From a virus (Duplodnaviria > Heunggongvirae > Uroviricota > Caudoviricetes): a stretch of 33,324 bases of DNA. A model generated the notes under the pieces. The model saw only the letters and a program-made list of their open reading frames with translations, was not told the DNA's origin and made no database searches. The DNA is taken from the IMG/VR virus record IMGVR_UViG_2711768068_000019; one strand, 5' to 3'. Numbering within the stretch: the stretch's first letter is position 1; each line of letters opens with the position of its first letter. Made by a program: the position numbers and the translations under genes. Positions 1,507 through 32,849 of this stretch are shown piece after piece.

Positions 1507-1534
1507 AATCTCCCTTACACGGGCTTATTTTTTA
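1507..1534. repeat. Prophage attachment site core, ogr-proximal junction (attR in P2 convention)
   Basis: aatctcccttacacgggcttatttttta is repeated exactly at 32822..32849; its reverse complement contains the 27-bp P2 att core AAAAAATAAGCCCGTGTAAGGGAGATT as I recall it. Confidence 0.85.
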
Positions 1535-1595
1535 CGTACAACAAATTGAAATAAAAGGATTTATTTCTGGTCACGTCCACACATTGACCACATCG

Positions 1596-1630
1596 ACAAA
1601 AAAGCCCCTCAACTGAGGGGCTTTCTGTTT
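1596..1630 (-). terminator. Rho-independent terminator downstream of ogr (hairpin is bidirectional in form)
   Basis: GC stem gcccctc / gaggggc with a 4-nt loop, flanked by an A-run on one side and a T-run on the other; on the minus strand it reads stem-loop followed by TTTTTT, directly after the ogr stop. Confidence 0.7.
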
Positions 1631-1634
1631 GTAA

Positions 1635-1853
1635 TTACATCCACATAATTTGCTGCCCTGACGGCAACGGGTGCGGTCTTACGGCGTGGACTTCTCCCGG
1701 CTTCACGATGTATCGCTGTACCGACTCATAAGTGATGAACGTGGCGCTGCAATTCACGTTCTGACACTGGTGATAACGCTCTTTTGTCGTGTCAGTGATA
1801 TAGCGACTTGTACGCGCATGTGCGGCATGCTGGCATAAAGGACAATGAAACAT
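1635..1853 (-). CDS. ogr: Late gene transcriptional activator Ogr (C4 zinc-finger protein)
   Basis: 72-aa product MFHCPLCQHAAHARTSRYITDTTKERYHQCQNVNCSATF... with a CxxC...CxxxxC arrangement, recognised as P2 Ogr. The track ORF (to 1916) starts at a TTG; the ATG at 1851-1853 is preceded by a GAGGTG Shine-Dalgarno and gives the canonical length. Confidence 0.9.
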   Translation of the reverse strand: MFHCPLCQHAAHARTSRYITDTTKERYHQCQNVNCSATFITYESVQRYIVKPGEVHAVRPHPLPSGQQIMWM

Positions 1854-1887
1854 CGCGAGCACCTCTTCCGGTTTTGTTGATGGTGCC

Positions 1888-1916
1888 ATTTTAGTTAATT
1901 TATCCTTATAAAACAA
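1888..1916 (-). promoter_or_regulatory. Candidate sigma70 promoter for ogr
   Basis: Minus strand reads TTGTTT, a 17-nt spacer, then TAAAAT in the AT-rich D-ogr intergenic region. Hexamer match only. Confidence 0.3.
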
Positions 1917-1934
1917 ACAGATAAAATAAAAACA

Positions 1935-3098
1935 TCACTCATCATCTTCTGTTTCGTACTCCACATCAGAAAGCCTGACCTCAAGCTCCAAGGACGTCGT
2001 GAAGCCGCTATTATTCAGAAAATGTGTCACCTTAGTGATTGTCCAGTCCTGCTCGTCTATGACGCGCTTAAAGCCTGACACTTTAACCGGTGTTTCCGTG
2101 TAAATATCTGCCCGACCGGTAGCCAGGCTGATGGAGAACTCCGCCACACCCCGTTGCAGTTTATCCCACTTCGCCTGAGCGGCGCGCATGGCCTGTGCTT
2201 TCGTGGCATATACCGTGGTCAGTGCAAAAACGTTGTCAGCCTCACCGGCCATGTATTCACCTTCGCGCGCTTCCGGTACTTTTGGCGCTTTCTTCTGCGT
2301 GACTGGTTTCGCTTTCGGGTGCTCCAGTGCGCGCAGGTGTTTCTCTTTCTTTTTGCGTTTCAGTTTTACCTTCTGCTTTTGCGGCTTCGGGTCTTTGGTG
2401 TGTAACCACTTTGCCGTTACGCCGGTATAGGCTCCACGGTCAGCAATCGCAAAATGATGGCGGTCGCCGTCGCTGCGGGTTATGGTGACCTGCGGGACTT
2501 TTTTACCGCTGGCCGTCACCCCCTGCCCCGCTTTGAGAAACAACAGTTTTCCCATTTTTACCGACACCTCACCGCCGTTGCGTTCAGCAAGGCGGGTCAG
2601 GAATTTTGCATCAGACTCCTGCGACTGGTCGATGTGCGGGATTTTAATTCCGGCCAGTGATGGAACGACACTGGCTTCCAGCCTGTTACGGGAGGCTATC
2701 GCCTCAACAATCGCACCGAGCGTGGTGTCATGCCAGGAGCCTTCACGGCGGGAATTGAGCGTCCCGCGAAAATCTGCACTCCGGGCGCGGATGGTGACCA
2801 CATCCGGTGCGCCCCGGTGTTCAACCTCATCAACGGTAAATTTCCCTTTGCATACCAGGGCAAAACCTTTCCAGCCGATATACACCGTCAGGACAGCGCC
2901 ACGAACCGGCAGCCCGACCTGCCCGTCGGCATCGTTCAGTTCAATATCAAGCTGGTCAGCCTCAAAGCCCCGGTTATCCGTCAGGGTCATGCTCATCAGA
3001 CGGTCGCTGATATTGCCGGTAATATCCCTGCTGTCGAGCATCAGCATGTAATCCGGCGTCAGCGTACTGCCTGCATCAAATGTCAGCGCATCCAGCAT
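1935..3098 (-). CDS. D: Tail protein D (late control gene D product)
   Basis: 387-aa ORF, ATG start, recognised as P2 gpD; start overlaps the U stop. Confidence 0.9.
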   Translation of the reverse strand: MLDALTFDAGSTLTPDYMLMLDSRDITGNISDRLMSMTLTDNRGFEADQLDIELNDADGQVGLPVRGAVLTVYIGWKGFALVCKGKFTVDEVEHRGAPDVVTIRARSADFRGTLNSRREGSWHDTTLGAIVEAIASRNRLEASVVPSLAGIKIPHIDQSQESDAKFLTRLAERNGGEVSVKMGKLLFLKAGQGVTASGKKVPQVTITRSDGDRHHFAIADRGAYTGVTAKWLHTKDPKPQKQKVKLKRKKKEKHLRALEHPKAKPVTQKKAPKVPEAREGEYMAGEADNVFALTTVYATKAQAMRAAQAKWDKLQRGVAEFSISLATGRADIYTETPVKVSGFKRVIDEQDWTITKVTHFLNNSGFTTSLELEVRLSDVEYETEDDE

Positions 3099-3577
3099 TA
3101 TCCCGCCCCCGTCATACCCGTGAATTTAGTCGCCATACTGCCAGCCTTACCGATGAGCGATTCCGCCTGTTTACCGATATCGCCATAAAGCGCGGCCAGT
3201 GATTCATCAACGCGGGTGAGCGACAGCGTAAAATCAATTTTTCGGGGTGTGCCATCTGCAAAGAAAATACTCCCTGTTTCACTCACCTTGCTGATGACAT
3301 ACATGCCGTAAATCATGCCGGTGCCATCCAGCAACGGCCACGCCCGGCCTTCCTCTGCCATCAGCCTGAGCGTGGTCATCGTCAGCTTCCCGCCGGTCAG
3401 TTCGGGATAAAGCACGCCGGCAAGTGTGATGTTTTCCTCACCCACACCGAGAAACTGAAAGGCATCCCGTTTACCGATACGGGAATTTGACGGCCAGCGA
3501 TAATCTGATTCACGCTGCATGGTCTGGTGTGGCAGCGTCTGGCGCATAAAAACAAACATACCTAACGCGAGCATCAT
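3098..3577 (-). CDS. U: Tail protein U
   Basis: 159-aa ORF recognised as P2 gpU; synteny T-U-D. Confidence 0.9.
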   Translation of the reverse strand: MMLALGMFVFMRQTLPHQTMQRESDYRWPSNSRIGKRDAFQFLGVGEENITLAGVLYPELTGGKLTMTTLRLMAEEGRAWPLLDGTGMIYGMYVISKVSETGSIFFADGTPRKIDFTLSLTRVDESLAALYGDIGKQAESLIGKAGSMATKFTGMTGAG

Positions 3578-3591
3578 TTTTCGTCACCTCC

Positions 3592-6039
3592 TTAACCGTC
3601 ATGCATCATGCTGGCACGGGCGCGCGCACGTTTATCCCGCTCGTATTTTTCGAGCGCATCCTGTAACTGGCGGTCAAGCTGTGTCCCCGGCGCAGTACCA
3701 CCCGTCAGGCTGATGTGATATTCGTTTTTACTCTGGTCCACATAAGAGCGGCCAGCCGGTGCCGTAACCGGCTGATAAGCCTGATAACCTGCATAAGAGC
3801 TGGTCGCCGGAATATAACCACCGGTGCCATACGTGGCGGCATGAGTTCTGGCGGCGGTCTGGTCAAGTGTGTCTGACTCTTTGTTGATAACACCGAGTTT
3901 TTCCAGTACCCAGTCAATACCGCTGCGCAGTTTGTTGAACGCATTAAGCGGCAGCATCAGCGCGTCAGCCAGTGCCTGCCCGAACATGACCCCCGTGTCA
4001 CGGCAACGGTTCAGGGTGTCCTGTGTGGCTTTAACCGGGGCAATCAGGTTTTTAAACCACTGCCACGCGGCCTGTAACTTTTCACCCAGCCAGTCAAAAA
4101 CCGGTTTAAGTGGCGTGAACAGTTCCCCCACCGGCGCAAATGCCGCTTTCAGCCCTTCCACCACACCGCCAAAGAATGCGCTGACAGGCTCCCAGTATTT
4201 ACGGATAAGCAACGCCCCGGCGACAATGGCGGCCACCACGGCCACAACCGGCCAGCTAATCGCCCCGATGGCCGTCATAACAGCACTGCCAACCGTCGTG
4301 AAGATTGCCCCCATTGCGCCTGCTGCCGCGATGATGGCATTAATGCCGGTGATAACCGGCCAGGCTACAAGACCAATTGCACCGATGATGCCAATAAGCG
4401 CCAGTGCGCCACCGACAATAAGGCCGATGGTTGACGCCAGTGATTTGTTTTTCTGGATCCAGCCGTCGAGTTTTAACACATACTTTGTGGCCGTCTGCGT
4501 GAGATTACGCAGTGCGCCTTCCTGTTGGTCAAACAGGTCAGTCCCCACCGCCTCATAAGCAGACTGAAACTCCTTAAAGTCACCGCCCAGGTTGTCCTGC
4601 ATGATATTTACCAGCTCGGCGGTCTTCCCGTCTGAGGCTTTAAACGCAGCGGTCAGTTTGTCCAGCTTTCCGGTTGAGGCGGCAGTCATCAGCACGGCGG
4701 CGGCTGAGCTGGCCTCCTCCCCGAAAATAGTTTTCATGTATTCAGCCTGCTGGGCAGTACCGAGCCGGTTTTTCTCAAAACTGGCCTGCATTTCTTTCAG
4801 AATGGTAAATATTGGCCGGGTGTTTCCCTTGCTGTCTGAGGTTTTCACTCCAAGCTCTTTGAGTGCATCCCATGCTTTTCCCGTCGGTGCCTGCAGGCGG
4901 CTTAACACGGCACGGCTTCCCGTCCCCGCCATTGAGCCTGTGATTTTTGCATCATGCAGCGCCCCGACCATTGCGGCGGTTTCTTCAATGCTGACACCGG
5001 CATTTTTTGCCACAGGTGCGGCATAGGTCAGCGCATCGCTCATACCGTCAAAATCGGCGGCGGTTTTGTTCATCGTCATGGAGAGAACATCCCCGATATG
5101 AGCGACCTTATCGTTTGAAAGCTGAAAGGCGGATTTCATCCCCATCAGCAGGGCGGCGTTTTCTTCCATCGTGCGACGGTTCGCCAGCGCCATATTCAGC
5201 GTGACCGGCGTTGCCGCCTGAATGGCATCAACATCCCCACCGGCTTTCGCAATAATAATCTGCGCACCGGCTGCATCATCTGCCGAGGCGGCGGTATTGT
5301 CGCCAAGCTGACGCGCCTGTTTGCGGAGCGCGGCCATTTCGGCGGAGTCTTTTGCCACACCTAGCACGGCCTGCAATTCTGAGTTTTTCTGCGCAAACTC
5401 ATAACCGGGCATCAGCAGCTTAACACCGGCCATCGTTCCCGCCGCCGCAATCCCCACACCGGCAGCGCCCACTGAGGCCATATTTCCGGCCAGCTCCTTT
5501 CCGGCCTGATAACGCTGTTTTACTGCGTTAAGTTTTGCCTGTTGCGCACTGACACGCGCCAGCGCATCACGCTGACGGTTAAGCTGTGTGGTGGTTTCAC
5601 TGATACGGTTTTTCAGCCCTCGTTCATCATGCGCCAGATTACGGGTATTAATTCCCACAGCGGCCAGTTCCCGCTGCTGGCGCTTAACGGAATCCGTCAG
5701 ACGGTTATATTTCGCCTGTAAGTCCTCCGCCGCACGCTTTGCGGATTCCAGCACTTTCGCCTGAGCACGGGTCGGACGTTCGGTGTTTTTAAACTGTGTG
5801 GCAAGGGCTTCGGCTTCCTGCCGAGCCTTTTCAAGTGCATGACCAGTCACGGCGAGCTGCGCACTGGTCTTGCGAAATCCCTCAATACGGGACGCCTGAC
5901 CGTTCAGCTCGCGCAGTGATTTTTGTGTTTCCCGGATATCCCCCGACAGCGACTTGCTCGCTGTACGGATGGATTTAAACGGGCGGGATGCCTGGTCAAC
6001 AGCCCTGAGCAATACCTGTAATTTTACATTGTTACTCAT
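3592..6039 (-). CDS. T: Tail tape measure protein T
   Basis: 815-aa ORF with a coiled-coil N-terminal half and a Gly/Ala-rich hydrophobic central segment, typical of tape measure proteins; position and length match P2 gpT. Confidence 0.9.
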   Translation of the reverse strand: MSNNVKLQVLLRAVDQASRPFKSIRTASKSLSGDIRETQKSLRELNGQASRIEGFRKTSAQLAVTGHALEKARQEAEALATQFKNTERPTRAQAKVLESAKRAAEDLQAKYNRLTDSVKRQQRELAAVGINTRNLAHDERGLKNRISETTTQLNRQRDALARVSAQQAKLNAVKQRYQAGKELAGNMASVGAAGVGIAAAGTMAGVKLLMPGYEFAQKNSELQAVLGVAKDSAEMAALRKQARQLGDNTAASADDAAGAQIIIAKAGGDVDAIQAATPVTLNMALANRRTMEENAALLMGMKSAFQLSNDKVAHIGDVLSMTMNKTAADFDGMSDALTYAAPVAKNAGVSIEETAAMVGALHDAKITGSMAGTGSRAVLSRLQAPTGKAWDALKELGVKTSDSKGNTRPIFTILKEMQASFEKNRLGTAQQAEYMKTIFGEEASSAAAVLMTAASTGKLDKLTAAFKASDGKTAELVNIMQDNLGGDFKEFQSAYEAVGTDLFDQQEGALRNLTQTATKYVLKLDGWIQKNKSLASTIGLIVGGALALIGIIGAIGLVAWPVITGINAIIAAAGAMGAIFTTVGSAVMTAIGAISWPVVAVVAAIVAGALLIRKYWEPVSAFFGGVVEGLKAAFAPVGELFTPLKPVFDWLGEKLQAAWQWFKNLIAPVKATQDTLNRCRDTGVMFGQALADALMLPLNAFNKLRSGIDWVLEKLGVINKESDTLDQTAARTHAATYGTGGYIPATSSYAGYQAYQPVTAPAGRSYVDQSKNEYHISLTGGTAPGTQLDRQLQDALEKYERDKRARARASMMHDG

Positions 6040-6459
6040 TCGTGTTTCCGCTTCGCCGGAGCGCCTTTTCGCGCCATGTGATGAGTTCGGTCAGGCTCAT
6101 GGGATACAGTTCTGATGGCGGCCAGTGAAATATCACAGCCACATCTGCCATCAGGTCATCGACCGAGAGATTTTTCGGAAACGTCACTGCACCGAGTTCG
6201 GCGACAAAAAACCGACCACCTTACCGGCCAGCGCCACAAGGTCAGGCAGTTCCAGCGCGGCGACTTCCTGCTCGGTCAGCATCGGTGCCGTCATGCGCGG
6301 CAGCACCTTAATCAGTGCATCGACTTCAGAGTTCGCGACCGCAGCCAGACTGACACCGCGCAGCGTCCCGGCATTGGGTTTCATCAGCGTGACCTGTTCG
6401 ATAACCTGCTCACCACGCTTGACCGGATTGTCCAGGGTAATCACATTTTCTTTGTTCAT
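6032..6459 (-). CDS. E+E': Tail assembly chaperone E+E' (programmed -1 frameshift product, about 142 aa)
   Basis: Slippery heptamer G GTT TTT TG (minus strand, about 6205..6213) lies 7 codons before the E stop; a -1 shift opens a frame that runs to a TAA overlapping the T start codon (ATGAGTAA). Confidence 0.8.
6184..6459 (-). CDS. E: Tail assembly chaperone E (zero-frame product)
   Basis: 91-aa ORF, ATG start, ending ...GKVVGFLSPNSVQ; position between FII and T as in P2. Confidence 0.9.
   Translation of the reverse strand: MNKENVITLDNPVKRGEQVIEQVTLMKPNAGTLRGVSLAAVANSEVDALIKVLPRMTAPMLTEQEVAALELPDLVALAGKVVGFLSPNSVQ
6205..6213 (-). other. Programmed -1 ribosomal frameshift site (slippery sequence GGTTTTTTG)
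   Basis: Seen directly in the minus-strand sequence; encodes G-F-L in frame 0 and G-F-F after slippage. Confidence 0.75.
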
Positions 6460-6515
6460 GGTTTTCTCACTTATGAATCGGGGTTAACCGGTCAGCCAGG
6501 CTGACCGGATGAAAA

Positions 6516-7034
6516 TCACAGGCCGATATTGCGGCGGTGTTGCTCCAGCCGGTCGACGCCGTTCACCTTCTCAATCATGTTGATGGTGTCGATTTCGACC
6601 AGCTCCTTACCGTCCATCGTCAGCCGGAAATAGGTGCAGACCACGGAGATTTTCGACTCGGTGTCTTCTCCCTGTTTGCCCTCGCCGGTGTCGATTTCTT
6701 TCTGACGTCCACGCATGACCACCTCGACGGCCACCGTTTCGCCGGTATCGTCGCGCTGGTAAGAGCCTGCAAAACGAATCGGTACGGCATCCACACCGGT
6801 TGCGGCGTAAAGCTCCCAGATAACCGAATCCGGGAAGCCACCGAGCGACCACTCCATTGACAGCGCATCGTCATCAAGGCCGAGGTCTACCGGTGCGCTG
6901 CCGTTCATCCCCGCACCGCGATAGTTTTCGAGCTTACGGGTCAGTTTTGGCAGCGTGACGGACTTTGCGACGCCCTGATAGCTGTAGCCGTTCAGAAAGA
7001 CGTTCATTAACTTGAGTTTGCGCGGCATTGCCAT
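6516..7034 (-). CDS. FII: Tail tube protein FII
   Basis: 172-aa ORF, ATG start, recognised as P2 gpFII; synteny FI-FII-E. Confidence 0.9.
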   Translation of the reverse strand: MAMPRKLKLMNVFLNGYSYQGVAKSVTLPKLTRKLENYRGAGMNGSAPVDLGLDDDALSMEWSLGGFPDSVIWELYAATGVDAVPIRFAGSYQRDDTGETVAVEVVMRGRQKEIDTGEGKQGEDTESKISVVCTYFRLTMDGKELVEIDTINMIEKVNGVDRLEQHRRNIGL

Positions 7035-7046
7035 CGGTCAGGCTCC

Positions 7047-8237
7047 TTAATTGCTGTTAACCGAGGTGACCAGATTTGCCAGGTATTTATCGGTAATACG
7101 CTGGCGCAGGGTCAGATTTTCAAGAGGAGGCACCGGTGTATAGTCGTAGTCGATATACAGTTTTCCGGCCTTGAGGGTTTCCGCATCGTTGGATTCTTCG
7201 CTGAACCAGCAGGTCGCATCCACGATATAGCCGTTTGTTTTCAGCTCTCGGAATTTGGCATTGATGCCGTCAACGATGTCGCGAATCAGCGTTGCGGTGA
7301 TGGGCTTGTCCACCGCCCACATGTGCGCCTCAGCCATCGTATCGGCCAGCACCTGCGCGGTGCGGGTGTAGTTTTCAAAGAGGAACAGCGGGTCATCAGA
7401 GCAGGTACGGTTACCCCAGAAGCGGAAACCGTCGCGGCGAATCAGCGTTGTGACGCCTGACTCGTTAAGCAGGTCAGCATCAGTACCGGACTCCTGCAAA
7501 TCCCAGAATACAGAGGCGCTGATGCCGGTAACACCGTTCACCCCGACATTGGACAGCGTTTTATGCCAGCCCTGCTCCTGGTCGATTTTAGCGCGCAGCC
7601 CCAGCGCACGGGCGGTGGCATACGCGGTGGCGGTGGTACTGGTGACCGTATCCCATGCGAGGAAATCCGGCCAGATGACCATCAGCTCACGCTGGCTGAA
7701 ATTCTGACGGTAGGCTTTCACCTCGGAAATGGTTTTACAGCCCCATGCGCTGATATACCCGAAAGCGCGCAGCTTCTGACAGACGGATGCCAGTGCAACA
7801 GCCACCTCTTTGGTATCCAGTCCCGGCACACCGAGAATACGCGGTTTAACACCGGTTACCGACTCCGCCGCCAGCAGGGCTTTTAGTCCGGTGTACTGAC
7901 CGTTTTCGTCGGTGGTGCCGATGATATTGGAAACGGTCTGCGCGAGTTTCGTTTCCTCATTGTCGCCGGTGCCGTCTTCCACGCGCACGACAACGGTGAC
8001 CGGTTTTGACTGGTCAGCGATGGCCTGCAACGATGCCGCCAGCGTGCCTTTTTTACCGGCCTTTGCAATTGCGCTCTGCACATTGGTAATCAGCACCGGT
8101 TTATTGAGGGGGAAGGTTTCCGCATCTGCATCGCTGGCCGTGCAGACCATGCCGACAATGGCCGTGGATACGGTGGAAATGACGCGGGTGCCGTCGTTAA
8201 TCTCCAGCACCTGCACGCCGTGATGATAGTCACTCAT
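7047..8237 (-). CDS. FI: Contractile tail sheath protein FI
   Basis: 396-aa ORF, ATG start, recognised as P2 gpFI. Confidence 0.9.
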   Translation of the reverse strand: MSDYHHGVQVLEINDGTRVISTVSTAIVGMVCTASDADAETFPLNKPVLITNVQSAIAKAGKKGTLAASLQAIADQSKPVTVVVRVEDGTGDNEETKLAQTVSNIIGTTDENGQYTGLKALLAAESVTGVKPRILGVPGLDTKEVAVALASVCQKLRAFGYISAWGCKTISEVKAYRQNFSQRELMVIWPDFLAWDTVTSTTATAYATARALGLRAKIDQEQGWHKTLSNVGVNGVTGISASVFWDLQESGTDADLLNESGVTTLIRRDGFRFWGNRTCSDDPLFLFENYTRTAQVLADTMAEAHMWAVDKPITATLIRDIVDGINAKFRELKTNGYIVDATCWFSEESNDAETLKAGKLYIDYDYTPVPPLENLTLRQRITDKYLANLVTSVNSN

Positions 8238-8328: not shown

Positions 8329-8359
8329 CAGATAAAGAAAATGCGGGCAATTCGCCCGC
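8329..8359 (-). terminator. Candidate rho-independent terminator downstream of the Z/fun-position gene
   Basis: Minus strand reads GCGGGC-GAATT-GCCCGC followed by ATTTTCTTTAT. It lies about 200 nt below the stop of the 8567..9160 gene and upstream of FI. Confidence 0.4.
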
Positions 8360-8566: not shown

Positions 8567-9160
8567 TCAATTATGTAAATCTTTTGTTTTATGTTCTTTA
8601 GCGTGTTGTGATAATAAATAGCTATAGCGTTTAAGCAAAATATTAGAAAGATTAAGCTCATTCATGAAGTGTTCTTCTAATAAGTAACCATCAATATCAA
8701 CTTTAATATCATTACCACTTTTCATCTTCTGTAACGTAGATTTTACACGCTCCAGCAGGATGCTTTGCTCATGGTAATAGTCCATAAGAAGAGTAACATC
8801 CTCTTTATCAAGCTTACTTAATTCGCCGAAGTAGGATTTAAACACTTTATCAGTCTGGTTTAATGCAATCTGTAAGCGAGGTCCCCCTAATGATTTGACA
8901 TTAATGGCAAAAGGCTCGCCAACAAAATGCTCCGAATTTTCGTCAAAGCCAATATGTCTCGTTTTATCAAGAAAAGTGAGAGCGCGATGGTTATTAGCGA
9001 TTTCATATGCAAACATTGTTCTGATACTGTCTCTCTCAGCCTCCATGTTTATATCATCACGATGATTTGTATAAAATATATTTCCAACAAAGAGAACCAT
9101 AGCAAGAATCACTGAACTTGCCTCCCAGTTAATATTTTTTAATCGTCGCTTAGTAAACAT
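8567..9160 (-). CDS. Hypothetical membrane-anchored protein, AT-rich moron at the P2 Z/fun position
   Basis: 197-aa ORF with ATG start and a strong Shine-Dalgarno (AAGGTG, 4-nt spacer). One N-terminal hydrophobic helix (SSVILAMVLFVGNIFYT) followed by a soluble domain. Markedly lower GC than the flanking G and FI genes. No family recognised. Confidence 0.65.
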   Translation of the reverse strand: MFTKRRLKNINWEASSVILAMVLFVGNIFYTNHRDDINMEAERDSIRTMFAYEIANNHRALTFLDKTRHIGFDENSEHFVGEPFAINVKSLGGPRLQIALNQTDKVFKSYFGELSKLDKEDVTLLMDYYHEQSILLERVKSTLQKMKSGNDIKVDIDGYLLEEHFMNELNLSNILLKRYSYLLSQHAKEHKTKDLHN

Positions 9161-9909: not shown

Positions 9910-9910
9910 A

Positions 9911-12166: not shown

Positions 12167-12176
12167 TATTCCTCAC

Positions 12177-13608: not shown

Positions 13609-13612
13609 GGTT

Positions 13613-19946: not shown

Positions 19947-20004
19947 AGTTTTTCCTGAAATTAAGGGTTAATCGTGAAGGTTTTCCCGGACTGACTGACG
20001 CCGG

Positions 20005-25993: not shown

Positions 25994-26200
25994 CTATCGT
26001 CTGCGTGGTGGTGGCGCAACTCTGGACTGACCGATATAGTTAAACCGCCCGTAATTATCCCGGACTATTTCGGCACACCCGACTAGCTCATCGGGCGTCA
26101 GATTTTCGTTGACCATAATCTGCTGTAGACGGTGAACAATGGCCATCAGCTTGATATTTTTAGTTTTATGGTGCGGTATCTCGCCTGGTATTCTGTGCAT
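25994..26200 (-). CDS. Hypothetical small protein (about 68 aa)
   Basis: ATG at 26198-26200 overlaps the stop of the upstream gene by one base (TAATG), suggesting translational coupling; the track ORF begins at a GTG 4 codons upstream. No homolog recognised. Confidence 0.35.
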   Translation of the reverse strand: MHRIPGEIPHHKTKNIKLMAIVHRLQQIMVNENLTPDELVGCAEIVRDNYGRFNYIGQSRVAPPPRRR

Positions 26201-26655
26201 TATCCAAGCCACCCATTTTGCTTTGCACGCTCCACCTGTTCATCTGAATAGTTCCATGCTCCATCCGTGGCAACCATTGCCCCGCCAGACATCCCCGTCT
26301 CTGGTTCATACATAACAGCAAGGCCGAGCTGATGCATAATTTCATGATTAATTCTGAATACCAGACCACGCTCACTAAGTTCTTTCCAGTTCACAATCTC
26401 ATATGCGCCTGTATTAAGCAGCTCAATACTTAGCAAGACATAATCTACCAGCCAGTCTGACAGGTCAGTAACATCTGTTATCCGGGCTTCAACCTTTCGC
26501 CCCGTGTACACACCCTGCACCCATTCATGCAAAATCAACGTGTCCCCGCGCTCATAATTACGGTCATTTTTCCGAAACTCTGCGCGTTTCTTTCCTTCCA
26601 GCACAAGGTCGAAATATTTTGCGTGCAGCTTTACCTCGTGAATTTTTGCCATCAT
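26200..26655 (-). CDS. ASCH/PUA-like (DUF3850-like) domain protein with a C-terminal extension containing an HExxH motif
   Basis: 151-aa product from the ATG overlapping the A stop (ATGA), preceded by GGAG. The N-terminus (MAKIHEVKLHAKYFDLVLEGKKRAEFRKNDRNYERGDTLILHEW...) resembles ASCH/DUF3850 proteins as I recall them. The C-terminal region contains HEIMH. Confidence 0.7.
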   Translation of the reverse strand: MMAKIHEVKLHAKYFDLVLEGKKRAEFRKNDRNYERGDTLILHEWVQGVYTGRKVEARITDVTDLSDWLVDYVLLSIELLNTGAYEIVNWKELSERGLVFRINHEIMHQLGLAVMYEPETGMSGGAMVATDGAWNYSDEQVERAKQNGWLG

Positions 26656-28937
26656 GTCCACTCCATTACTGTTGAGAATCCCGGCCACTCATCAGCGACC
26701 GGATACGTGAACTTTTTCCCGTCATAATTTACGGTTGCCCCACGCGCCAGCGCCTCAAGCTCCCATCGCTGCGGCCTGATACCGTTCTGAGCAAGGTCAA
26801 CGCGGATACGGGTAATTTGCATTCGTTCCGACCGGGTCATTCTGGCCGATGGCGCTATTTCATGCGGTTTTAACGGGCTTCCGTTTCTTTGCTGACGACT
26901 TGGCGTTCTCCGACCGTGTTTTAATGCACCTCTGAGCGCCCTCACGACCTCCGGGTCACTCCATTCGATAACACCGTCATCAACCAGATTAAGCACTGCT
27001 GCGGCGTGCTCAGAAGGTGTGGGAGCCGGTAACGAAGTATCACCGCCGGTAAGCTTTCCACAGTTATTGACAGGACTCCGAGGCGCGGCGATGCCGCTTT
27101 TTAAAGTCAAAGGCTCAACGACCGGAACTTTCGGCACAATGCGCCAGTCCGTGGTTCTGGTGATATGAATATGACGCGCGCCGAGATGCGGTGCGTAAAT
27201 GCCGACCACTCTCTCGACTTCTTCCTCGTACTCGTTAACGTCATCCGACGGGCTACGGGCGACTCTGACAGTCTGACAATCGCGCGGAACATTTGCCCCA
27301 CCCTGCGCGCTGATATACAACGCAAAATCACCACTGTCTGCGGCGGCGCGTGCAGCCTCGACGCGCTCGTCAAACTCATCAGCAATGCTGACGCCGCGAG
27401 GCAATTTGCGTAATTCACGGTAAGCCCCCATTGTCGGCAGACCAACCGTTTTAAATTGCGGAATGCGCCACGTTGACGCCCATGCGGTAACAGCCGCTGC
27501 AGTGTCTTTCAGCGGCCTGCCGGTGTCGTTATCGAGCTGACCATCCAGTGCATAGCCGTCGATGTTTTTTGAAATGTATTTCGCGATATATCCCGCAGCA
27601 CCGCCCCGGTTAAGGTGTTTTGCCTGAAAACGGTTTCGCGCGGCTCCTCTTTCGTCACCATCCTCTTTGAGCGCATAGCGACGCATGATTTCGATAATCT
27701 GGTTACGCTGGCGTGGATTACAAAAAAGCATCATATGCCAGTGCGGCGTTCCGTCGTGGTGTGGCTCGACGACTCGCAAACCGTAGACCTGTAAATCATT
27801 ATCCTTGAATGCCGTGCGCATCAGGCTCCAGATACGGCAGAGATAACGCTGCGCATCCTTTGGATTAAATGCCTCATCGTTCCAGCCGTGATTAAGCTGC
27901 ACGGTTTTACTTTCGCCTTTTCCGACCTGACGTGTCGGGTGATACTTTGACGGCGCGGTCAGCGTGATAAACATCCCCACATCACCCTCTGCAGCGGCGT
28001 AACGCTCAATACCGGCAATGGTGTTCATCAGCTCCATCCGGCGAATTTCAGGATTAGAAATACTGCCCATCACCTTACTGATAAGGTCGATGCGCTCGCC
28101 GGTTTCCCTGTTTTCGAGGTCACACGATTTAAGAAATTCCAGATTTGCCTGGCGGCGCGCACGCACATCACGAATGGCGTGTTTACTGGCATAAGGAGAA
28201 CGGTCTTTATTGACCTCCCCGACAGCTATCAGTAACGCCTCATGCCAGCGCATACGCTGTCCTTTAAGCTGATGAGTCCACCACTCATCGTTAAACAGGC
28301 GGGCAATGGCAGAATATGCCTGCCTCGTGGTCATCTGTCCTTTACGGTATTTTTTCCAGTAGAGAGGGGAAATATTGAAAGCACGTGCAGCGCCAGCAAC
28401 ATGACCATAGAGGTGAGCCTGCGCCTTATCCGTAAACAGCGATTCTTTTTCGCCATGCGCATCCACCCAGGCATCGCAGAGTTCCTCATACATCATGAAA
28501 AGCTGCGATGAGATACGGGCGGCAAACTTTTTCAGCTCCTTGTCATTCATTCCAGGCAGGCGCGCATAGTGGTCACGCTCTGCCAGAAACAGCAACGACG
28601 CGTCGGTGTTCATTTCATGGCGCTGATTCACACGCTCAATACGCGGCCATAAACGACGCTGAAAAGTGGATGTGAGGAAATAAAACCCGTGTACCGGACT
28701 TTTATTGCGCCGGATGTAGTCATAGCGTGAAGTAAACAGCGAGCGCAAAAAGTAAGGCAGGCGGTTAATCGTGGATAAAACACCTTGCACCTGACGCATC
28801 TCGTCACGTGTAAGAGGTCTTTCTCGCCCAACGGCCTCGCGTGGCGCGTTCCATGCATAAGCACCGGTAAACGTCTCACCGGTGCCTGCGGCAAATGCTG
28901 ACGGAGGGACAAAACGCCCGGAGGCTTTAACGGCCAT
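26652..28937 (-). CDS. A: Replication initiation protein A (rolling-circle HUH endonuclease)
   Basis: 761-aa product from the ATG at 28935-28937 (MAVKASGRFVPPSAF...); the track ORF begins at a TTG 14 codons upstream. Contains a HUH-type motif (PHWHMMLF) and a candidate catalytic Tyr region (YIAKYISKN). Confidence 0.9.
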   Translation of the reverse strand: MAVKASGRFVPPSAFAAGTGETFTGAYAWNAPREAVGRERPLTRDEMRQVQGVLSTINRLPYFLRSLFTSRYDYIRRNKSPVHGFYFLTSTFQRRLWPRIERVNQRHEMNTDASLLFLAERDHYARLPGMNDKELKKFAARISSQLFMMYEELCDAWVDAHGEKESLFTDKAQAHLYGHVAGAARAFNISPLYWKKYRKGQMTTRQAYSAIARLFNDEWWTHQLKGQRMRWHEALLIAVGEVNKDRSPYASKHAIRDVRARRQANLEFLKSCDLENRETGERIDLISKVMGSISNPEIRRMELMNTIAGIERYAAAEGDVGMFITLTAPSKYHPTRQVGKGESKTVQLNHGWNDEAFNPKDAQRYLCRIWSLMRTAFKDNDLQVYGLRVVEPHHDGTPHWHMMLFCNPRQRNQIIEIMRRYALKEDGDERGAARNRFQAKHLNRGGAAGYIAKYISKNIDGYALDGQLDNDTGRPLKDTAAAVTAWASTWRIPQFKTVGLPTMGAYRELRKLPRGVSIADEFDERVEAARAAADSGDFALYISAQGGANVPRDCQTVRVARSPSDDVNEYEEEVERVVGIYAPHLGARHIHITRTTDWRIVPKVPVVEPLTLKSGIAAPRSPVNNCGKLTGGDTSLPAPTPSEHAAAVLNLVDDGVIEWSDPEVVRALRGALKHGRRTPSRQQRNGSPLKPHEIAPSARMTRSERMQITRIRVDLAQNGIRPQRWELEALARGATVNYDGKKFTYPVADEWPGFSTVMEWT

Positions 28938-29202
28938 ATGAGCCAAAAGCCTCTGAACAACGCTTGCTGAGTTGCTCAACCTGCGCGTTTAAATCAGCAA
29001 AAGACTTTGCGCTTCCGGTCAGAATATCGTGATGCATCAGGCCGGAAACGAGCTGGCTTAATTTCGGGTAATAACCAACCACCGCCAGCCATTCCTGACC
29101 GGCGTTTTTACCGCTTTCCGCTCTCTTTTTCTCGTGGAGAATAAACTGAAAGCTGTCACTGGTAACGACATAACGTTCGCCAATTTCAATACGAATACTC
29201 AT
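28927..29202 (-). CDS. Hypothetical protein in the early operon (91 aa)
   Basis: ATG-start ORF overlapping the A start by 11 nt; lies between the zinc-finger ORF and A. No family recognised. Confidence 0.55.
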   Translation of the reverse strand: MSIRIEIGERYVVTSDSFQFILHEKKRAESGKNAGQEWLAVVGYYPKLSQLVSGLMHHDILTGSAKSFADLNAQVEQLSKRCSEAFGSYGR

Positions 29203-29423
29203 GCCGTTCTCCGGTAATGTTTGTTTTTTGCTTCAAAGACTGACTGACAGGAAACACAACGCGTGGCTGACGGGTAAGCCGCACGACGGGCAGCAGGTAT
29301 TGGCGCGTCACACTCTTCGCAAACCAGCGCAGAAGCACCGCAATGTTTTACTCTTGCCGCGTTAATCTGGCGCTCCAGTAATTCAGCCTGTTGTTCCTGA
29401 ATAAAATCCACGTTGTCCGGCAT
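29199..29423 (-). CDS. TraR/DksA-type C4 zinc-finger protein (P2 orf83-like)
   Basis: 74-aa ORF with CxxC...CxxC (CEECDAPIP...CVSCQ) near the C-terminus; its position upstream of A matches P2 orf83. Confidence 0.7.
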   Translation of the reverse strand: MPDNVDFIQEQQAELLERQINAARVKHCGASALVCEECDAPIPAARRAAYPSATRCVSCQSVFEAKNKHYRRTA

Positions 29424-29713
29424 TACCAGCTCCTTTTGTCGTTCAGTTTCTTAAATTCATCAGCGCAATAGCTGGCGATTTCTGTCGTTAATTTTGTCAG
29501 TTCATCCACGGATGAAATTTGCTTATGAAATACAGCGCGTTTAACAAGTAAATTAACCACATCAGACAGGAGATTTAATTTATCCGCATAAATGGCTATA
29601 GTTGATTCCACCATATCCCCAGTGTTTTTATCGCGTTTAATATCAGCTAGCGACAAATCACCATTTTTCATGACTGAAATCTTCAGCCAGTTATTAAGCA
29701 ATATATTTTTCAT
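29423..29713 (-). CDS. Hypothetical protein (P2 orf82 position), AT-rich
   Basis: 96-aa ATG-start ORF, tightly packed with its neighbours; lower GC than the flanking ORFs. Confidence 0.55.
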   Translation of the reverse strand: MKNILLNNWLKISVMKNGDLSLADIKRDKNTGDMVESTIAIYADKLNLLSDVVNLLVKRAVFHKQISSVDELTKLTTEIASYCADEFKKLNDKRSW

Positions 29714-29955
29714 TCGCTATATGCCCTCTCCGCAGAATCAATCATTTCCCGGCCATTATCGGTAATACAGAAACCTTCTCTTGATTTGGTCACAAGCCCC
29801 CATTTCCCCATTGCTATAAATGCTTTTTCCACACGACTAGGACAGGAGCGGAAGACATCGCTTGAAGGATGTAGTGGAGTCTTGTCATCTAATTTTTTAA
29901 GTAATGAAAGTTGATAATCTGTTAAGCGTTTCCTGAACCATTTTGTATTTGTCAT
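29710..29955 (-). CDS. Hypothetical protein (P2 orf81 position)
   Basis: 81-aa product from the ATG at 29953-29955; the track ORF begins at a TTG two codons upstream. Confidence 0.55.
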   Translation of the reverse strand: MTNTKWFRKRLTDYQLSLLKKLDDKTPLHPSSDVFRSCPSRVEKAFIAMGKWGLVTKSREGFCITDNGREMIDSAERAYSE

Positions 29956-29969
29956 CTCCAACTTTCCTG

Positions 29970-30182
29970 TTATTTATTGAGTCCTAGATTATGGAATTTG
30001 GCAGACTCCTGACTGAGCAACTCGACTATCTCCACGCGGGATAACTCCGCCTTTGTGATGTGGCGAATCATGGCATCAAGATGAGACGAAAAGCGCGTTG
30101 CTACATCGGCCTGTGCTTCGGTTCTGGCCTGTTGCAGCATTAATGCGTATTTACCGCACTGATTTTCAGAAACTGTATGCAT
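29970..30182 (-). CDS. Hypothetical protein (P2 orf80 position)
   Basis: 70-aa product from the ATG at 30180-30182, preceded by GGAG with a 7-nt spacer; the track ORF begins at a TTG 11 codons upstream. Confidence 0.55.
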
Positions 30183-30245
30183 GACTTTCTCCAGGCAAAA
30201 AGAAGCCCCGCACAATTAAGTGCGTTAAAAACTTTGGTTAATTAC

Positions 30246-30746
30246 TTAATGCAGATATTGCTCTGGTTTTACCGACGTCAGAATTGTCGGTGCATATTCA
30301 AACAGACTGAATAATTCACGTAATGCACGGAATAAAGCATCACGCCAGTAACATGACTCTTCATTAATTCGCCAGTATGGCTGGTTAAATTCTTTTTCTG
30401 TCAGTCGTGCGTGCATAAATAAAGTACGGCGCTGACTGACAGTTAAAAAGCTAATATATGCATACTCACTTGCACCGACCTGACGGCGTTTTGAGAATGC
30501 CCCACGCAATTCATCAATTGCACAAACCAGCCGTTCACGTTCGACGTCGTTCATTTCTTCAAAACGCATCGTTGCATGACGCTGTTTTAACTGCGCATGG
30601 AAGCAAACCGTTAGCCGTTCGCGCTCCATCATCTGATTATAATAATCACATGTCTCCTGCCAGCGAGGGACGGCAAGATGCTTACCAATTATCCGGCGCA
30701 TAGTTGCTGGTTGTTTTTCAACGAGATTGAGCGTCATCACTGTCAT
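30246..30746 (-). CDS. B: Replication protein B (helicase-loader-like)
   Basis: 166-aa product from the ATG at 30744-30746 (MTVMTLNLVEKQP...), recognised as P2 gpB. Confidence 0.9.
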   Translation of the reverse strand: MTVMTLNLVEKQPATMRRIIGKHLAVPRWQETCDYYNQMMERERLTVCFHAQLKQRHATMRFEEMNDVERERLVCAIDELRGAFSKRRQVGASEYAYISFLTVSQRRTLFMHARLTEKEFNQPYWRINEESCYWRDALFRALRELFSLFEYAPTILTSVKPEQYLH

Positions 30747-30913
30747 TTCCATACCCTCCGGCTTTTCAGAAAGGTCAGAGCCTTTTTTAACGGACTCTGT
30801 TTTTTGGTGCGGATAATGATTCCCTTACGCCCCTTACCGTGGGTGATGGTGAAGTCAATCGCCCTGGGGCTTTCGTTACGCAGTAACTGAGCAATACAAC
30901 GAGGCTCATTCAT
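30743..30913 (-). CDS. Small basic hypothetical protein (P2 orf78 position)
   Basis: 56-aa product from the ATG at 30911-30913 with a strong Shine-Dalgarno (AAGGAG, 6-nt spacer); the track ORF begins at a GTG 8 codons upstream. Sits between cox and B. Confidence 0.55.
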   Translation of the reverse strand: MNEPRCIAQLLRNESPRAIDFTITHGKGRKGIIIRTKKQSPLKKALTFLKSRRVWK

Positions 30914-30923
30914 ACGGTTCTCC

Positions 30924-31199
30924 TTAACGTGGTTCACCGAGACCTAACCACATCAACCAGCCGTCACGAATCTCTTTAGGGCGGCTTTCATAAGCCAGTT
31001 TTAGTCCGTTATTCCATGCCGGAAGGTATACCCAATATTCACCTGCACGACCTGAAGCTGATTGTGGATCGGTCATATCAATTACAGGCAGCTTTCCTTT
31101 ATCGATCATCCGACGAACCGCTCCTGTCGATTTTCCTATTAGTTTTGCGAACTCCTGATAAGGAATCGCATCAGTCATGAGTGTTACTTGCTTGCTCAT
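30924..31199 (-). CDS. cox: Cox (excisionase / repressor of Pc)
   Basis: 91-aa ORF, ATG start, first gene of the early operon and divergent from C; recognised as P2 Cox. Confidence 0.9.
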   Translation of the reverse strand: MSKQVTLMTDAIPYQEFAKLIGKSTGAVRRMIDKGKLPVIDMTDPQSASGRAGEYWVYLPAWNNGLKLAYESRPKEIRDGWLMWLGLGEPR

Positions 31200-31236: not shown

Positions 31237-31242
31237 TATAAT
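31237..31242 (+). promoter_or_regulatory. Candidate -10 element of the repressor promoter Pc
   Basis: Perfect TATAAT about 72 nt upstream of the C start; no good -35 match at 17 nt, as expected for a weak promoter. Would be face-to-face with the proposed Pe. Confidence 0.35.
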
Positions 31243-31280
31243 GCCTTTTAGTGCCCACATCCAAGCACTAAACAATCTAC

Positions 31281-31310
31281 ATCTAAACTAAATACTATTG
31301 AGATCTAAAC
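31281..31310. promoter_or_regulatory. Candidate C repressor operators O1/O2 (8-bp direct repeats, 22-bp periodicity)
   Basis: ATCTAAAC occurs at about 31281..31288 and 31303..31310, flanking the proposed Pe -10. This matches the P2 arrangement of two 8-bp direct repeats around the Pe -10, as I recall it. Confidence 0.5.
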
Positions 31311-31320
31311 ACCATGTCAA
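31292..31320 (-). promoter_or_regulatory. Candidate early promoter Pe (drives cox-B-A)
   Basis: Minus strand reads TTGACA (overlapping the C start codon), a 17-nt spacer, then TAGTAT. Confidence 0.5.
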
Positions 31321-31613
31321 ACACGATAAGCGAGAAGATAGTCTTAATGCGAAAATCAGAGTATTTGAGCAGACAACAACTTGCTGATTTAACAGGGGTT
31401 CCGTATGGCACGCTGAGTTACTATGAAAGTGGTCGTTCAACACCTCCAACAGATGTCATGATGAACATCCTGCAGACCCCACAATTCACCAAATACACTT
31501 TATGGTTCATGACCAATCAGATCGCTCCTGAGTCCGGGCAAATTGCGCCCGCTCTCGCACACTTTGGGCAAAACGAAACAACGTCGCCCCACTCCGGTCA
31601 AAAGACTGGTTAA
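31314..31613 (+). CDS. C: Immunity repressor C
   Basis: 99-aa ORF, ATG start (MSNTISEKIVLMRKSEYLSRQQLADLTGVPYGTLSYYESG...), with a helix-turn-helix region; length and position match P2 C. Confidence 0.9.
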   Translation: MSNTISEKIVLMRKSEYLSRQQLADLTGVPYGTLSYYESGRSTPPTDVMMNILQTPQFTKYTLWFMTNQIAPESGQIAPALAHFGQNETTSPHSGQKTG

Positions 31614-31728
31614 CAATTCATCGTGAATATATTCATCACAAGTGCCTACTATTGGTGGCTAAATTTCAGCCACCACGAAAAAAGCGATTAGTAGTCGCAA
31701 AAAAACACACCACTCGGAGGGTTTTCTG

Positions 31729-32742
31729 ATGGCAATCAAAAAACTCGATGATGGTCGATATGAAGTGGACATCCGCCCTACTGGACGTAATGGAAAACGC
31801 ATCCGTAGGAAGTTTGATAAGAAAAGCGAAGCTGTCGCTTTCGAGAAATACACGTTGTACAACCACCACAATAAAGAATGGCTATCAAAACCAACAGACA
31901 AGCGACGTCTGTCGGAGCTGACACAGATCTGGTGGGATTTAAAGGGTAAACACGAAGAGCATGGGAAATCTAATCTTGGAAAAATTGAAATCTTCACAAA
32001 AATAACGAATGACCCATGCGCATTTCAAATTACGAAATCGCTTATCAGCCAGTACTGCGCCACCCGAAGAAGTCAGGGTATTAAACCTTCGAGTATCAAT
32101 CGTGATTTAACATGTATTAGCGGCATGTTTACAGCCCTGATTGAAGCGGAGTTATTCTTTGGTGAGCACCCTATCAGAGGGACAAAAAGGCTTAAGGAGG
32201 AAAAACCAGACACAGGCTATCTCACGCAGGAAGAAATTGCCTTACTGCTTGCTGCTCTTGACGGCGACAACAAAAAGATTGCGATTCTTTGCCTGAGTAC
32301 TGGAGCACGTTGGGGAGAAGCAGCTCGTTTGAAAGCAGAAAATATCATCCATAACCGCGTCACGTTTGTTAAAACGAAAACAAACAAACCACGCACCGTC
32401 CCGATCTCAGAGGCTGTTGCCAAAATGATCGCGGATAACAAACGAGGTTTTTTATTCCCTGATGCTGATTACCCTCGCTTCAGACGAACAATGAAAGCAA
32501 TAAAACCGGATTTGCCAATGGGGCAAGCTACACATGCACTAAGGCACAGCTTTGCCACTCATTTCATGATTAATGGAGGAAGTATTATCACGCTACAACG
32601 GATACTAGGTCACACGCGGATTGAGCAAACTATGGTTTACGCTCATTTTGCGCCAGAGTACCTTCAGGACGCCATTTCTCTTAATCCGCTAAGAGGTGGT
32701 ACTGAGGTCGAGAGTGTCCACACAGTGTCCACAGTAGAGTAA
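31729..32742 (+). CDS. int: Tyrosine integrase
   Basis: 337-aa ORF preceded by GGAGG; the C-terminal region has the conserved R...HxxR...Y catalytic residues (ARWGEAARL, HALRHSFAT, VYAHF). Adjacent to the att core. Confidence 0.9.
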   Translation: MAIKKLDDGRYEVDIRPTGRNGKRIRRKFDKKSEAVAFEKYTLYNHHNKEWLSKPTDKRRLSELTQIWWDLKGKHEEHGKSNLGKIEIFTKITNDPCAFQITKSLISQYCATRRSQGIKPSSINRDLTCISGMFTALIEAELFFGEHPIRGTKRLKEEKPDTGYLTQEEIALLLAALDGDNKKIAILCLSTGARWGEAARLKAENIIHNRVTFVKTKTNKPRTVPISEAVAKMIADNKRGFLFPDADYPRFRRTMKAIKPDLPMGQATHALRHSFATHFMINGGSIITLQRILGHTRIEQTMVYAHFAPEYLQDAISLNPLRGGTEVESVHTVSTVE

Positions 32743-32821
32743 CGTTTAAGGGCTTTCAGTGGTAATTTATGCCGCTCAAACCCGCATTGTACCGTTGAAA
32801 GCCCCTACTGTTGACACCCTA

Positions 32822-32849
32822 AATCTCCCTTACACGGGCTTATTTTTTA
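32822..32849. repeat. Prophage attachment site core, int-proximal junction (attL in P2 convention)
   Basis: Exact 28-bp copy of the repeat at 1507..1534, about 80 nt downstream of the int stop. Confidence 0.85.

Follow-up and report, generated by a model that had tools for sequence, protein, structure and literature searches.

Phage P2 (NC_001895) has been reported to be insensitive to SOS and not inducible by mitomycin C, because its repressor has no peptidase motif (PMC2669165), and SOS-inducible P2-like phages rely on a LexA-controlled tum (PMC11195241), which the annotation of 186 likewise carries. P2 is the helper of satellite P4, whose epsilon protein derepresses it and activates its lytic replication (PMC9942202). 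E. coli C served as the isolation host of a related phage, P2_AC1 (PMC9122126). Sequenced relatives of the element described below range from 31.1 to 33.6 kb. In ICTV practice, a genus gathers phages with at least about 70% nucleotide similarity over the genome, and a species those with at least 95% whole-genome identity.

The 33,324-nt stretch of DNA analysed here (the window) holds a prophage of 31.3 kb, with a unit genome of 31,315 bp, placed between yegQ/cyaR and yegR. We consider it highly probable, from its sequence, that this element is a genetically complete temperate P2-type phage (Peduoviridae, Peduovirus), with a mosaic backbone and no response to SOS. A P2-like prophage at yegQ-yegR was the original prediction, and it was confirmed: 38 of the 42 P2 proteins, all used as tblastn queries, were recovered in the P2 order, and both flanks were identified. 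The two att cores were also found at the positions predicted, as an exact 28-bp direct repeat, AATCTCCCTTACACGGGCTTATTTTTTA, which is the P2 attP core. The boundaries are as follows.

1..1362, + strand: yegQ/trhP, chromosomal flank, 100% identity with E. coli genomes that carry the annotation trhP/yegQ
1445..1530, + strand: cyaR (CyaR/RyeE sRNA), Rfam RF00112, 100.7 bits for a gathering score of 47
1507..1534, no strand: attR core (P-O-B' junction, ogr side), 28-bp exact direct repeat
32822..32849, - strand: attL core, 0 mismatches to P2
33007..33324, - strand: yegR, chromosomal flank, so named in matching genomes; its ORF stops at the final base of the window

The att core is the 3' terminator hairpin of cyaR, and the reconstructed attP matches that of P2 at 228 of 232 nt, with 4 differences. 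The element was inserted by its tyrosine integrase at the cyaR 3' end, in the yegQ-yegR interval, and it shows that the CyaR terminator is restored from phage DNA upon integration. No tRNA gene was found in the window, and a tRNA-type attachment site was therefore ruled out. The duplicated att core, the 3' end of cyaR and the locus of the K-12 remnant all designate the P2 site, which we take to be 'locH' (name: Barreiro and Haggard-Ljungquist 1992), where K-12 holds its remnant. That K-12 keeps a degraded remnant here had been rightly noted: it consists only of ogrK and 213 nt of D (yegZ), about 640 bp. K-12 is collinear with positions 1..2149 of the window at 98.9% identity, and collinearity starts again at 32831, within the attL core. 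Its remnant corresponds to such a prophage with 30.7 kb deleted internally.

We then compared the genes with those of P2. Thirty-three of them are exactly as long as in P2 and begin with ATG, each carrying 0-17 amino-acid changes. The full-length P2 core set is present in canonical order (Q-P, O-S, V-G, FI-D, ogr, int, C, cox, B, A). The structural, lysis, replication and integration genes had been predicted to be canonical and unbroken, and this was borne out by exact translation, which revealed no hidden inactivating mutation and no indel in core genes: P2 length, an ATG and no internal stop were found for Q, P, O, N, M, L, X, Y, K, lysA, lysB, lysC, R, S, V, W, J, I, G, FI, FII, E, T, U, D, ogr, int, C, cox, orf78, B, orf82, orf83 and A. 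C, Cox, Ogr, P, K, X, W and FII are identical to their P2 counterparts.

1635..1853, - strand: ogr, late-transcription activator, 72 aa, 100% identical to P2 Ogr
1935..8237, - strand: F operon, P2 lengths, 0-13 substitutions per gene
F operon, - strand: D 1935..3098, U 3098..3577, T 3592..6039
F operon, - strand: E 6184..6459, FII 6516..7034, FI 7047..8237
6032..6459, - strand: E+E' -1 frameshift product, 142 aa, intact, 1 substitution, slippery site inside 6179..6219
9382..14592, - strand: V operon, V, W, J, I and G at P2 length, H longer
V operon, - strand: G 9382..9909, H 9911..12166, I 12177..12707
V operon, - strand: J 12700..13608, W 13613..13960, V 13957..14592
14659..20859, - strand: O operon, every gene with P2 length and ATG, 0-13 substitutions
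O operon, - strand: S 14659..15111, R 15104..15571, lysC 15534..15824, lysB 15679..16104
O operon, - strand: lysA 16092..16517, K 16532..17029, Y 17029..17310, X 17314..17517
O operon, - strand: L 17517..18026, M 18126..18869, N 18873..19946, O 20005..20859
21033..22805, + strand: P, terminase ATPase subunit, 590 aa, 100% P2
22805..23839, + strand: Q, portal, 344 aa, 4 substitutions
26652..31199, - strand: early operon, A, B, cox, orf78, orf82 and orf83 at P2 length
Early operon, - strand: A 26652..28937, orf83 28927..29202, orf82 29199..29423, orf81 29423..29713
Early operon, - strand: orf80 29970..30182, B 30246..30746, orf78 30743..30913, cox 30924..31199
31314..31613, + strand: C repressor, 99 aa, 100% P2
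31729..32742, + strand: int, 337 aa, 2 substitutions, 99.4% P2

Among the 42 P2 proteins searched by tblastn, the sole missing ones are orf30, fun(Z), tin and old, each marked as non-essential in the annotation of the P2 record. P2 further differs by the C-terminal half of H, by its orf80 and orf81, of which the element carries diverged alleles, by a shorter orf91 and by the absence of an 81-aa gene. The P2 alignment covers 86% of the prophage length, with large backbone blocks at 95.7-98.2% identity, and identity drops below this backbone level solely in the H-G tail-fibre region. Judged from these alignments, the resemblance to P2 is far above chance.

Cis-acting sites were examined likewise. 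The cos-like site predicted earlier proved to be a true cos, its 19-nt cohesive end GGCGAGGCGGGGAAAGCAC matching P2 at all 19 positions, and the flanks (~105 nt) are 97-98% identical to D8 and PhiR44_1. Other sites identical to P2 are ori, Pe/O1/O2, Pc, the Int P arm, the Cox boxes, the activator site of pO/pP, the E/E' site, tQ and the terminator after B. A single base separates the element from P2 at the IHF site, the P' arm, the ogr promoter, the ogr/F terminator and the O-operon attenuator; the ogr promoter variant is also found in D8, P2_AC1 and P22H1.

1532..1565, - strand: IHF site, 0-1 mismatch to the annotated P2 site
1569..1596, - strand: Int P-arm sites, identical to P2
1601..1624, - strand: ogr/F-operon terminator, one base different from P2
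8238..8460, - strand: pF late-promoter region, including an upstream terminator at 8343..8359
14593..14658, - strand: S-V spacer with the pV region, without orf30, 66 bp
20939..20969, - strand: Ogr activator site common to pO and pP, 31/31 as in P2
23845..23866, + strand: tQ terminator, identical to P2
24009..24027, - strand: cos, 19-nt cohesive end, 19/19 with P2 cosL/cosR, near Q
27059..27099, - strand: ori nick region, within A, 41/41 as in P2
31217..31242, - strand: Pc, 26/26 as in P2
31281..31320, - strand: Pe and operators O1/O2, 40/40 as in P2
32708..32734, - strand: Int P' arm, 1 mismatch to P2
32732..32805, - strand: Cox boxes, 0 mismatches to P2

Four P2 sites lying beside orf30 or Z/fun had no match, namely the terminators of the O and V operons and the activator sites of pV and pF. 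The activator site of pF is unlike that of P2, yet TGT-N12-CCA is retained, and the pF region is 97.5% identical to phages D8, PhiR44_1 and P22H1. Similarly, a 91-bp segment enclosing the S-V spacer (14580..14670) is 100% identical to Wphi, PhiR44_1 and P22H1. The pV and pF regions depart from P2, being of the Wphi/D8 type, but agree with plaque-forming relatives. Altogether, all core genes and tested cis sites are present and unbroken, and no lesion is detectable in silico.

Similarity to P2, counted as identical bases per prophage length, is 0.83, and it is at most 0.83 with any phage of the panel, which places the element in the genus Peduovirus and outside the species Peduovirus P2. P2 and P22H1 (NC_049386) are the closest overall within the panel, at ~83% each. 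P22H1 shares P2-type int, C and cox (99.7-100%), the 66-bp S-V spacer and a 197-aa gene at the Z/fun locus (97.5%), but differs in the content of the A-Q hotspot, the H tip and G (70% identity). Wphi, D8, PhiR44_1 and P2_AC1 have structural, lysis and replication proteins 90-100% identical to those of the element, H and G excepted, but differ in their integrase, C and Cox types (~35-53% identity), hotspot cargo and tail-fibre tips. Orf30 is missing in Wphi, D8 and PhiR44_1 too, and the 197-aa gene is present in D8, PhiR44_1 and P2_AC1 (94-98%). Phage 186 (Eganvirus) and the E. coli HS P2-like phage share the family-level architecture and late-gene control (B/Ogr). The backbone is a mosaic of modules circulating among E. 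coli P2-like phages.

The tail fibre H is 751 aa long, versus 669 in P2, and its C-terminal half is different. Over the N-terminal half, identity to P2SIAC10 is 97.7%, and the C-terminal 412 aa have no close relative among sequenced phages (best 58%). The allele formed by the H tip and G recurs at 99.7-99.9% identity in 9 complete E. coli genomes; an exact record of the H protein is limited to 2 contigs. E. coli C, given as host in the GenBank record of PhiR44_1, may be unsuitable as an indicator strain because the tail-fibre tip is unlike that of P2, and its sensitivity should not be assumed.

The prophage had also been described as the vehicle of two cargo loci. It is indeed a mobile carrier, of three inserted accessory loci plus a variant orf91. 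At known hotspots, a gene for a membrane protein of 197 aa and the two genes of a PDC-M18 cassette take the place of orf30, fun(Z), tin and old.

8567..9160, - strand: accessory gene 1 (197 aa), Z/fun hotspot, GC ~37%
24169..25836, - strand: accessory locus 2, old/tin hotspot, PDC-M18A and PDC-M18B
24169..24708, - strand: PDC-M18B, 179 aa, 4 predicted TM segments
24709..25836, - strand: PDC-M18A, 375 aa, start on record the ATG at 25836
25994..26212, - strand: orf92-like small ORF, phrog match (phrog_11386 and phrog_1812 for the orf92-like/orf91 pair)
26200..26655, - strand: orf91 variant, 151 aa, DUF3850/ASCH and DUF7415 (Pfam), longer than P2 orf91
29710..29955, - strand: accessory insert 3 (81 aa), early operon between orf80 and orf81, phrog_11056

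The 197-aa protein is a full-length match to phrog_3829 (449 bits), is 97.5-98% identical to the same-locus gene of D8, PhiR44_1 and P22H1, and has relatives labelled 'lysogenic conversion protein' at NCBI. It had no match in Pfam, PADLOC or NCBIfam, nor by PDB sequence search; its model, a TM helix with a helical bundle, has a pLDDT of 64.6, too uncertain for a fold search. The 81-aa ORF is a ~230-bp insertion relative to P2; the exact protein is recorded in 5826 blocks of the sequence collection, and lies in a P2-like prophage early operon in 6 of 6 loci among those listed. The orf92-like/orf91 region is 96% identical to P2SIAC10. Consensus promoter scans near the cargo gave nothing above chance. 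These low-GC foreign genes at three variable positions likely encode phage-exclusion functions expressed in the lysogen.

The exact M18A protein is recorded in 248 blocks of the collection, although no match to the cassette was found at megablast level among 5,426 complete E. coli genomes. Neither M18 protein had a hit in Pfam, in NCBIfam or by PDB sequence search. Sequence homology to RexA/RexB was not detected, profile-level tests being negative (no hmmsearch hit at E<=10, hhalign probability 0.2) and BLASTP finding nothing; lambda RexAB and P. putida RexABpp have no detectable sequence similarity to M18, and M18A is ~100 aa longer. The soluble M18 component has a RexA-like DNA-binding fold, and the adjacent small membrane protein has four TM segments with RexB-like spacing (hydropathy). 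We tentatively propose, while rating it somewhat below an even chance, that the cassette is a RexAB-type abortive-infection system beyond sequence recognition, made of a RexA/RdgC-fold DNA sensor and a four-helix membrane effector.

Immunity and integration are of the P2 type: C and Cox are 100% identical to P2, Int 99.4%, with operators at 40/40 and attP at 228/232. The prophage had been thought likely inducible, with mitomycin C as the test, and this part of the original prediction did not hold. Phage 186 and the E. coli HS P2-like phage have a CI-type repressor and a LexA-controlled tum, and are thereby SOS-inducible (PMC11195241), so that derepression by mitomycin C might be imagined here as well; one P2-like prophage of O157 Sakai even responded to mitomycin C despite a repressor devoid of peptidase motif (PMC2669165). 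The window has neither 186-type element: tblastn found no Tum, CI or Orf97 (best Tum match 25 aa, E=0.02), and the LexA box CTGT-N8-ACAG is absent throughout. SOS inducibility was therefore rejected, the more so as the 99-aa C is identical to the non-cleavable P2 C and profile and family searches detected no antirepressor signature in the accessory genes. Induction by SOS is thus very improbable, and the prophage should not answer SOS or mitomycin C. The helper-dependent induction also suggested reverses the roles, since P2 is the helper and the P4 epsilon protein derepresses it (PMC9942202).

From P2 biology, the life cycle would proceed as follows. In the lysogen, Pe would be repressed by C, and expression limited to C, int and the accessory genes. 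Upon inactivation of C, for which the known routes are rare spontaneous switching and the epsilon antirepressor of a P4 satellite, Cox, B and A would be produced. Int, Cox and IHF would excise the 31,315-bp circle, and A would nick the origin for rolling-circle replication. Ogr would activate the four late promoters, and the terminase (M+P) would cleave cos and load the capsid. Phage recovery would call for expression of P4 epsilon or Cox, or for spontaneous release, mitomycin C not being expected to be effective.

Could the prophage be cryptic despite its open frames, a missense, an H tip ill-matched to the G chaperone or altered regulation blocking excision, assembly or adsorption, so that it merely supplies its host with accessory genes? 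A missense or a regulatory base could still inactivate it, the evidence being in silico. Relative to a panel of seven phages, 37 residues are private to the prophage, including LysA R87C, G R147C and 3 in A, and the C-terminal half of H is unlike that of any sequenced phage. P2-like elements do decay at this locus, as illustrated by the K-12 remnant and by isolateD, whose element has an M-to-FII deletion. However, the private changes are mostly conservative, and none is found in P, N, M, K, Y, X, V, W, J, I, FII, E, U, Ogr, C or Cox, while the H-tip and G allele is kept in several unrelated genomes. Over 7,682 codons, differences from P2 are mostly synonymous (479 versus 115 non-synonymous, ~4:1), so that the element was under selection and not decaying; no core gene has an indel. 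We thus find a defective prophage unlikely. A chimeric short-read assembly, with two P2-like prophages of one genome collapsed into a single contig, is hardly credible. The orf80-81 block, the H tip and the M18 cassette are indeed closest to different prophage lineages, and the combination is absent from complete genomes, but all junctions fall at gene-module boundaries with frames kept, each module is found in the same context in other assemblies, and modular swapping is a documented behaviour of P2-like phages (PMC13586616).

The complete P2-type phage proposed here is an ordinary element, a fresh mosaic within a well-known phage type. No copy of the whole prophage was found in 5,426 complete RefSeq E. 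coli genomes (best coverage 86%). It carries little general weight for phage biology, because few prophages are as common in E. coli as the P2-like ones, the site is classical and the same integrase-side junction is found in ~15% of complete E. coli genomes. It shows, clean and complete, the ancestor-like form of the K-12 ogrK/yegZ remnant. If the RexAB-type reading of the PDC-M18 cassette is true, the latter would be a lambda-Rex-like exclusion module, widespread in Enterobacterales, that serves phages of the P2 family as well as P4 satellites (Rousset 'system 4').

All 42 annotated P2 proteins (NC_001895) were searched against the window, followed by exact translation. We found 38 of them, in the P2 order. 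The following 33 genes have exactly the P2 length, an ATG start, no internal stop and between 0 and 17 amino acid substitutions each: Q, P, O, N, M, L, X, Y, K, lysA, lysB, R, S, V, W, J, I, G, FI, FII, E, T, U, D, ogr, int, C, cox, orf78, B, orf82, orf83 and A. The overlapping gene lysC has the P2 length too. No residue differs from P2 in P, K, X, W, FII, Ogr, C, Cox, orf78 or orf82. The programmed -1 frameshift of E+E' is kept: the 41 nt around the slippery site are identical to P2, with a single residue changed in the 142-aa product. The proteins that the search did not find in the window, orf30, fun(Z), tin and old, are all four marked as non-essential in the P2 record. With 38 proteins in order and 33 unbroken genes, the element is genetically complete, as the original prediction had it. 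Overall similarity to P2 is approximately 83%, which places the prophage, as judged by sequence, at the same genus level as P2 and in a different species.

Over the 7,682 codons of the 33 equal-length genes, 479 synonymous and 115 non-synonymous codon differences separate the window from P2, the pattern expected of divergence under purifying selection, and not of a decaying remnant. Leaving out H, G, orf80 and orf81, the structural, lysis and replication proteins have 93.6-100% full-length identity to at least one member of a seven-phage panel of sequenced P2-like relatives, which includes P2_AC1, isolated on E. coli C (PMC9122126). Only 37 residues, mostly conservative, are private to the window relative to this panel.

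Cis-acting sites are similarly well kept, among them two that are identical to P2:

24009..24027, cos, 19 nt
27059..27099, replication nick region, 41 nt

No difference from P2 was seen either in Pe with operators O1/O2, in Pc, in the Int P arm, in the Cox boxes, in the Ogr site that pO and pP share, or in the two terminators tQ and the one following B. A single base is mismatched in each of five further sites, namely the IHF site, the P' arm, the promoter of ogr, the ogr/F terminator (within its loop) and the O-operon attenuator, and the attP recreated by excision would differ from that of P2 at 4 of 232 positions. Two late-promoter regions, pV and pF, have no match to P2, because both adjoin replaced accessory loci. 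Wphi, PhiR44_1 and P22H1 match at 100% identity the stretch holding the 66-bp S-V spacer, in which pV lies; for the pF region, D8, PhiR44_1 and P22H1 reach 97.5% identity, with TGT-N12-CCA half-sites kept. Such promoter layouts therefore occur in sequenced phages.

The prophage had also been called likely inducible, and this did not hold. The repressor C, Cox and the operators are those of P2, a phage whose repressor has no peptidase motif and which is reported to be, for that reason, insensitive to SOS and not inducible by mitomycin C (PMC2669165). In contrast, inducibility of the P2-like phage of E. coli HS relies on a LexA-controlled antirepressor, tum (PMC11195241), and the annotation of phage 186 gives the same basis; neither a Tum homologue nor a CTGT-N8-ACAG (LexA) box was found in the window. 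Lytic growth would be expected by rare spontaneous switching, or by derepression by P4 epsilon, which derepresses P2 (PMC9942202).

The boundaries of the element are defined by the following features:

1..1362, yegQ (now trhP), left end of the window, 99-100% match to E. coli chromosomes
1445..1530, CyaR/RyeE sRNA gene (Rfam, 100.7 bits)
1507..1534 and 32822..32849, att core, an exact 28-bp direct repeat, AATCTCCCTTACACGGGCTTATTTTTTA, equal to the P2 attP core
33007..33324, yegR, right end of the window, 99-100% match to E. coli chromosomes

Both the yegQ-yegR site and the att coordinates are exactly those originally proposed. One core copy plus the DNA between both copies makes a unit of 31,315 bp, inside the 31.1-33.6 kb range of its relatives. 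In the region 1445..1534, cyaR ends in the core, which is the CyaR terminator hairpin, so that integration swaps the last 24 nt of cyaR for identical phage sequence and thereby rebuilds the cyaR 3' end from phage DNA. The integrase-side junction (int end, core and yegR flank) is present in 812 of 5,426 complete E. coli genomes (15%). In this set, a 24.9-kb stretch of the prophage is covered to at least 80% in 108 genomes, and none of those searched has the whole combination.

Just beyond the attL core, the chromosomal flank (32850..32920) resembles a decayed P2 P arm. It has CTGGTCAC and the exact 15-mer CATTGACCACATCGA in common with the real P arm (1575..1596), when even a shared 12-mer arose in just 2 of 2000 shuffles, and a partial core, AATCTCCCTT, comes after the P-arm-like stretch. 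Since this flank is kept in most E. coli genomes, the 'empty' attachment site, too, may be the scar left by an old P2-type element.

Decay is visible in relatives at this locus. K-12 MG1655 is collinear with positions 1..2149 (98.9% identity), retaining yegQ, cyaR, the core, the P arm, ogrK and the last 213 nt of D, and collinearity picks up again at 32831, inside the other att core. The K-12 remnant is thus what a similar prophage would leave after losing 30.7 kb from its interior; the window has the whole element, a contrast already drawn in the original prediction. A sister prophage at the same site in isolateD (L001, NZ_CP135488.1) has a different internal deletion, M to FII, by which gpM and the tail-tube gene have become fused (28030..28750 of that record). 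In its decay it stands between a complete prophage and what is left in K-12.

The weakest point is the tail fibre H, an open 751-aa frame whose N-terminal half is 97.7% identical to that of a P2 relative. Its C-terminal 412 aa (9911..11149, minus strand) have no close counterpart in sequenced phages, the best full-length match being 58%, and form a mosaic tip with patches like lambdoid side-tail fibres, P1 S and Yersinia phage fibres. Only two contigs on record encode exactly this H, but nine complete E. coli genomes have the allele of H tip and chaperone gene G at 99.7-99.9% identity. P2 fibres engineered by fusion at residue 370 function when given a matching chaperone (PMC9942202), so that natural mosaicism at that position would be expected. 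With such a tip, host range probably differs from that of P2, and E. coli C should not be taken for granted as an indicator strain.

The element's proposed role as a vehicle is supported by its accessory genes, such as the M18 cassette (PDC-M18A and PDC-M18B) and the first of the following:

8567..9160, minus strand, 197-aa low-GC protein in the Z/fun hotspot, replacing fun(Z); phrog_3829
26200..26655, minus strand, orf91 variant of 151 aa (109 aa in P2), DUF3850/ASCH joined to a C-terminal DUF7415
29710..29955, minus strand, 81-aa ORF on about 230 bp of inserted DNA, with divergent alleles of orf80 and orf81 on either side; phrog_11056

The 197-aa gene is also present in D8, PhiR44_1 and P22H1. 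Its family was found in Enterobacterales only, relatives being named 'lysogenic conversion protein' at NCBI; a domain search gave no match, and a low-confidence model (pLDDT 64.6) suggests a hydrophobic helix at the N-terminus, with a body that is also helical. The copy of the orf91 variant in isolateD is annotated as frameshifted. The 81-aa insertion, a locus beyond the two cargo loci first proposed, occurs neither in P2 nor in any of the seven panel phages. Its protein, winged-helix-like by weak winged-helix/MotA-like matches, is recorded unchanged in 5,826 blocks of the collection. At each of the six loci listed, the gene sits within a P2-like prophage's early operon, and all six prophages have a different integrase from the one here.

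The prophage is a new mosaic combination of the very well-known P2 type and a candidate for a working phage, and the possible Rex-like nature of its M18 cassette is the loose end of most interest.
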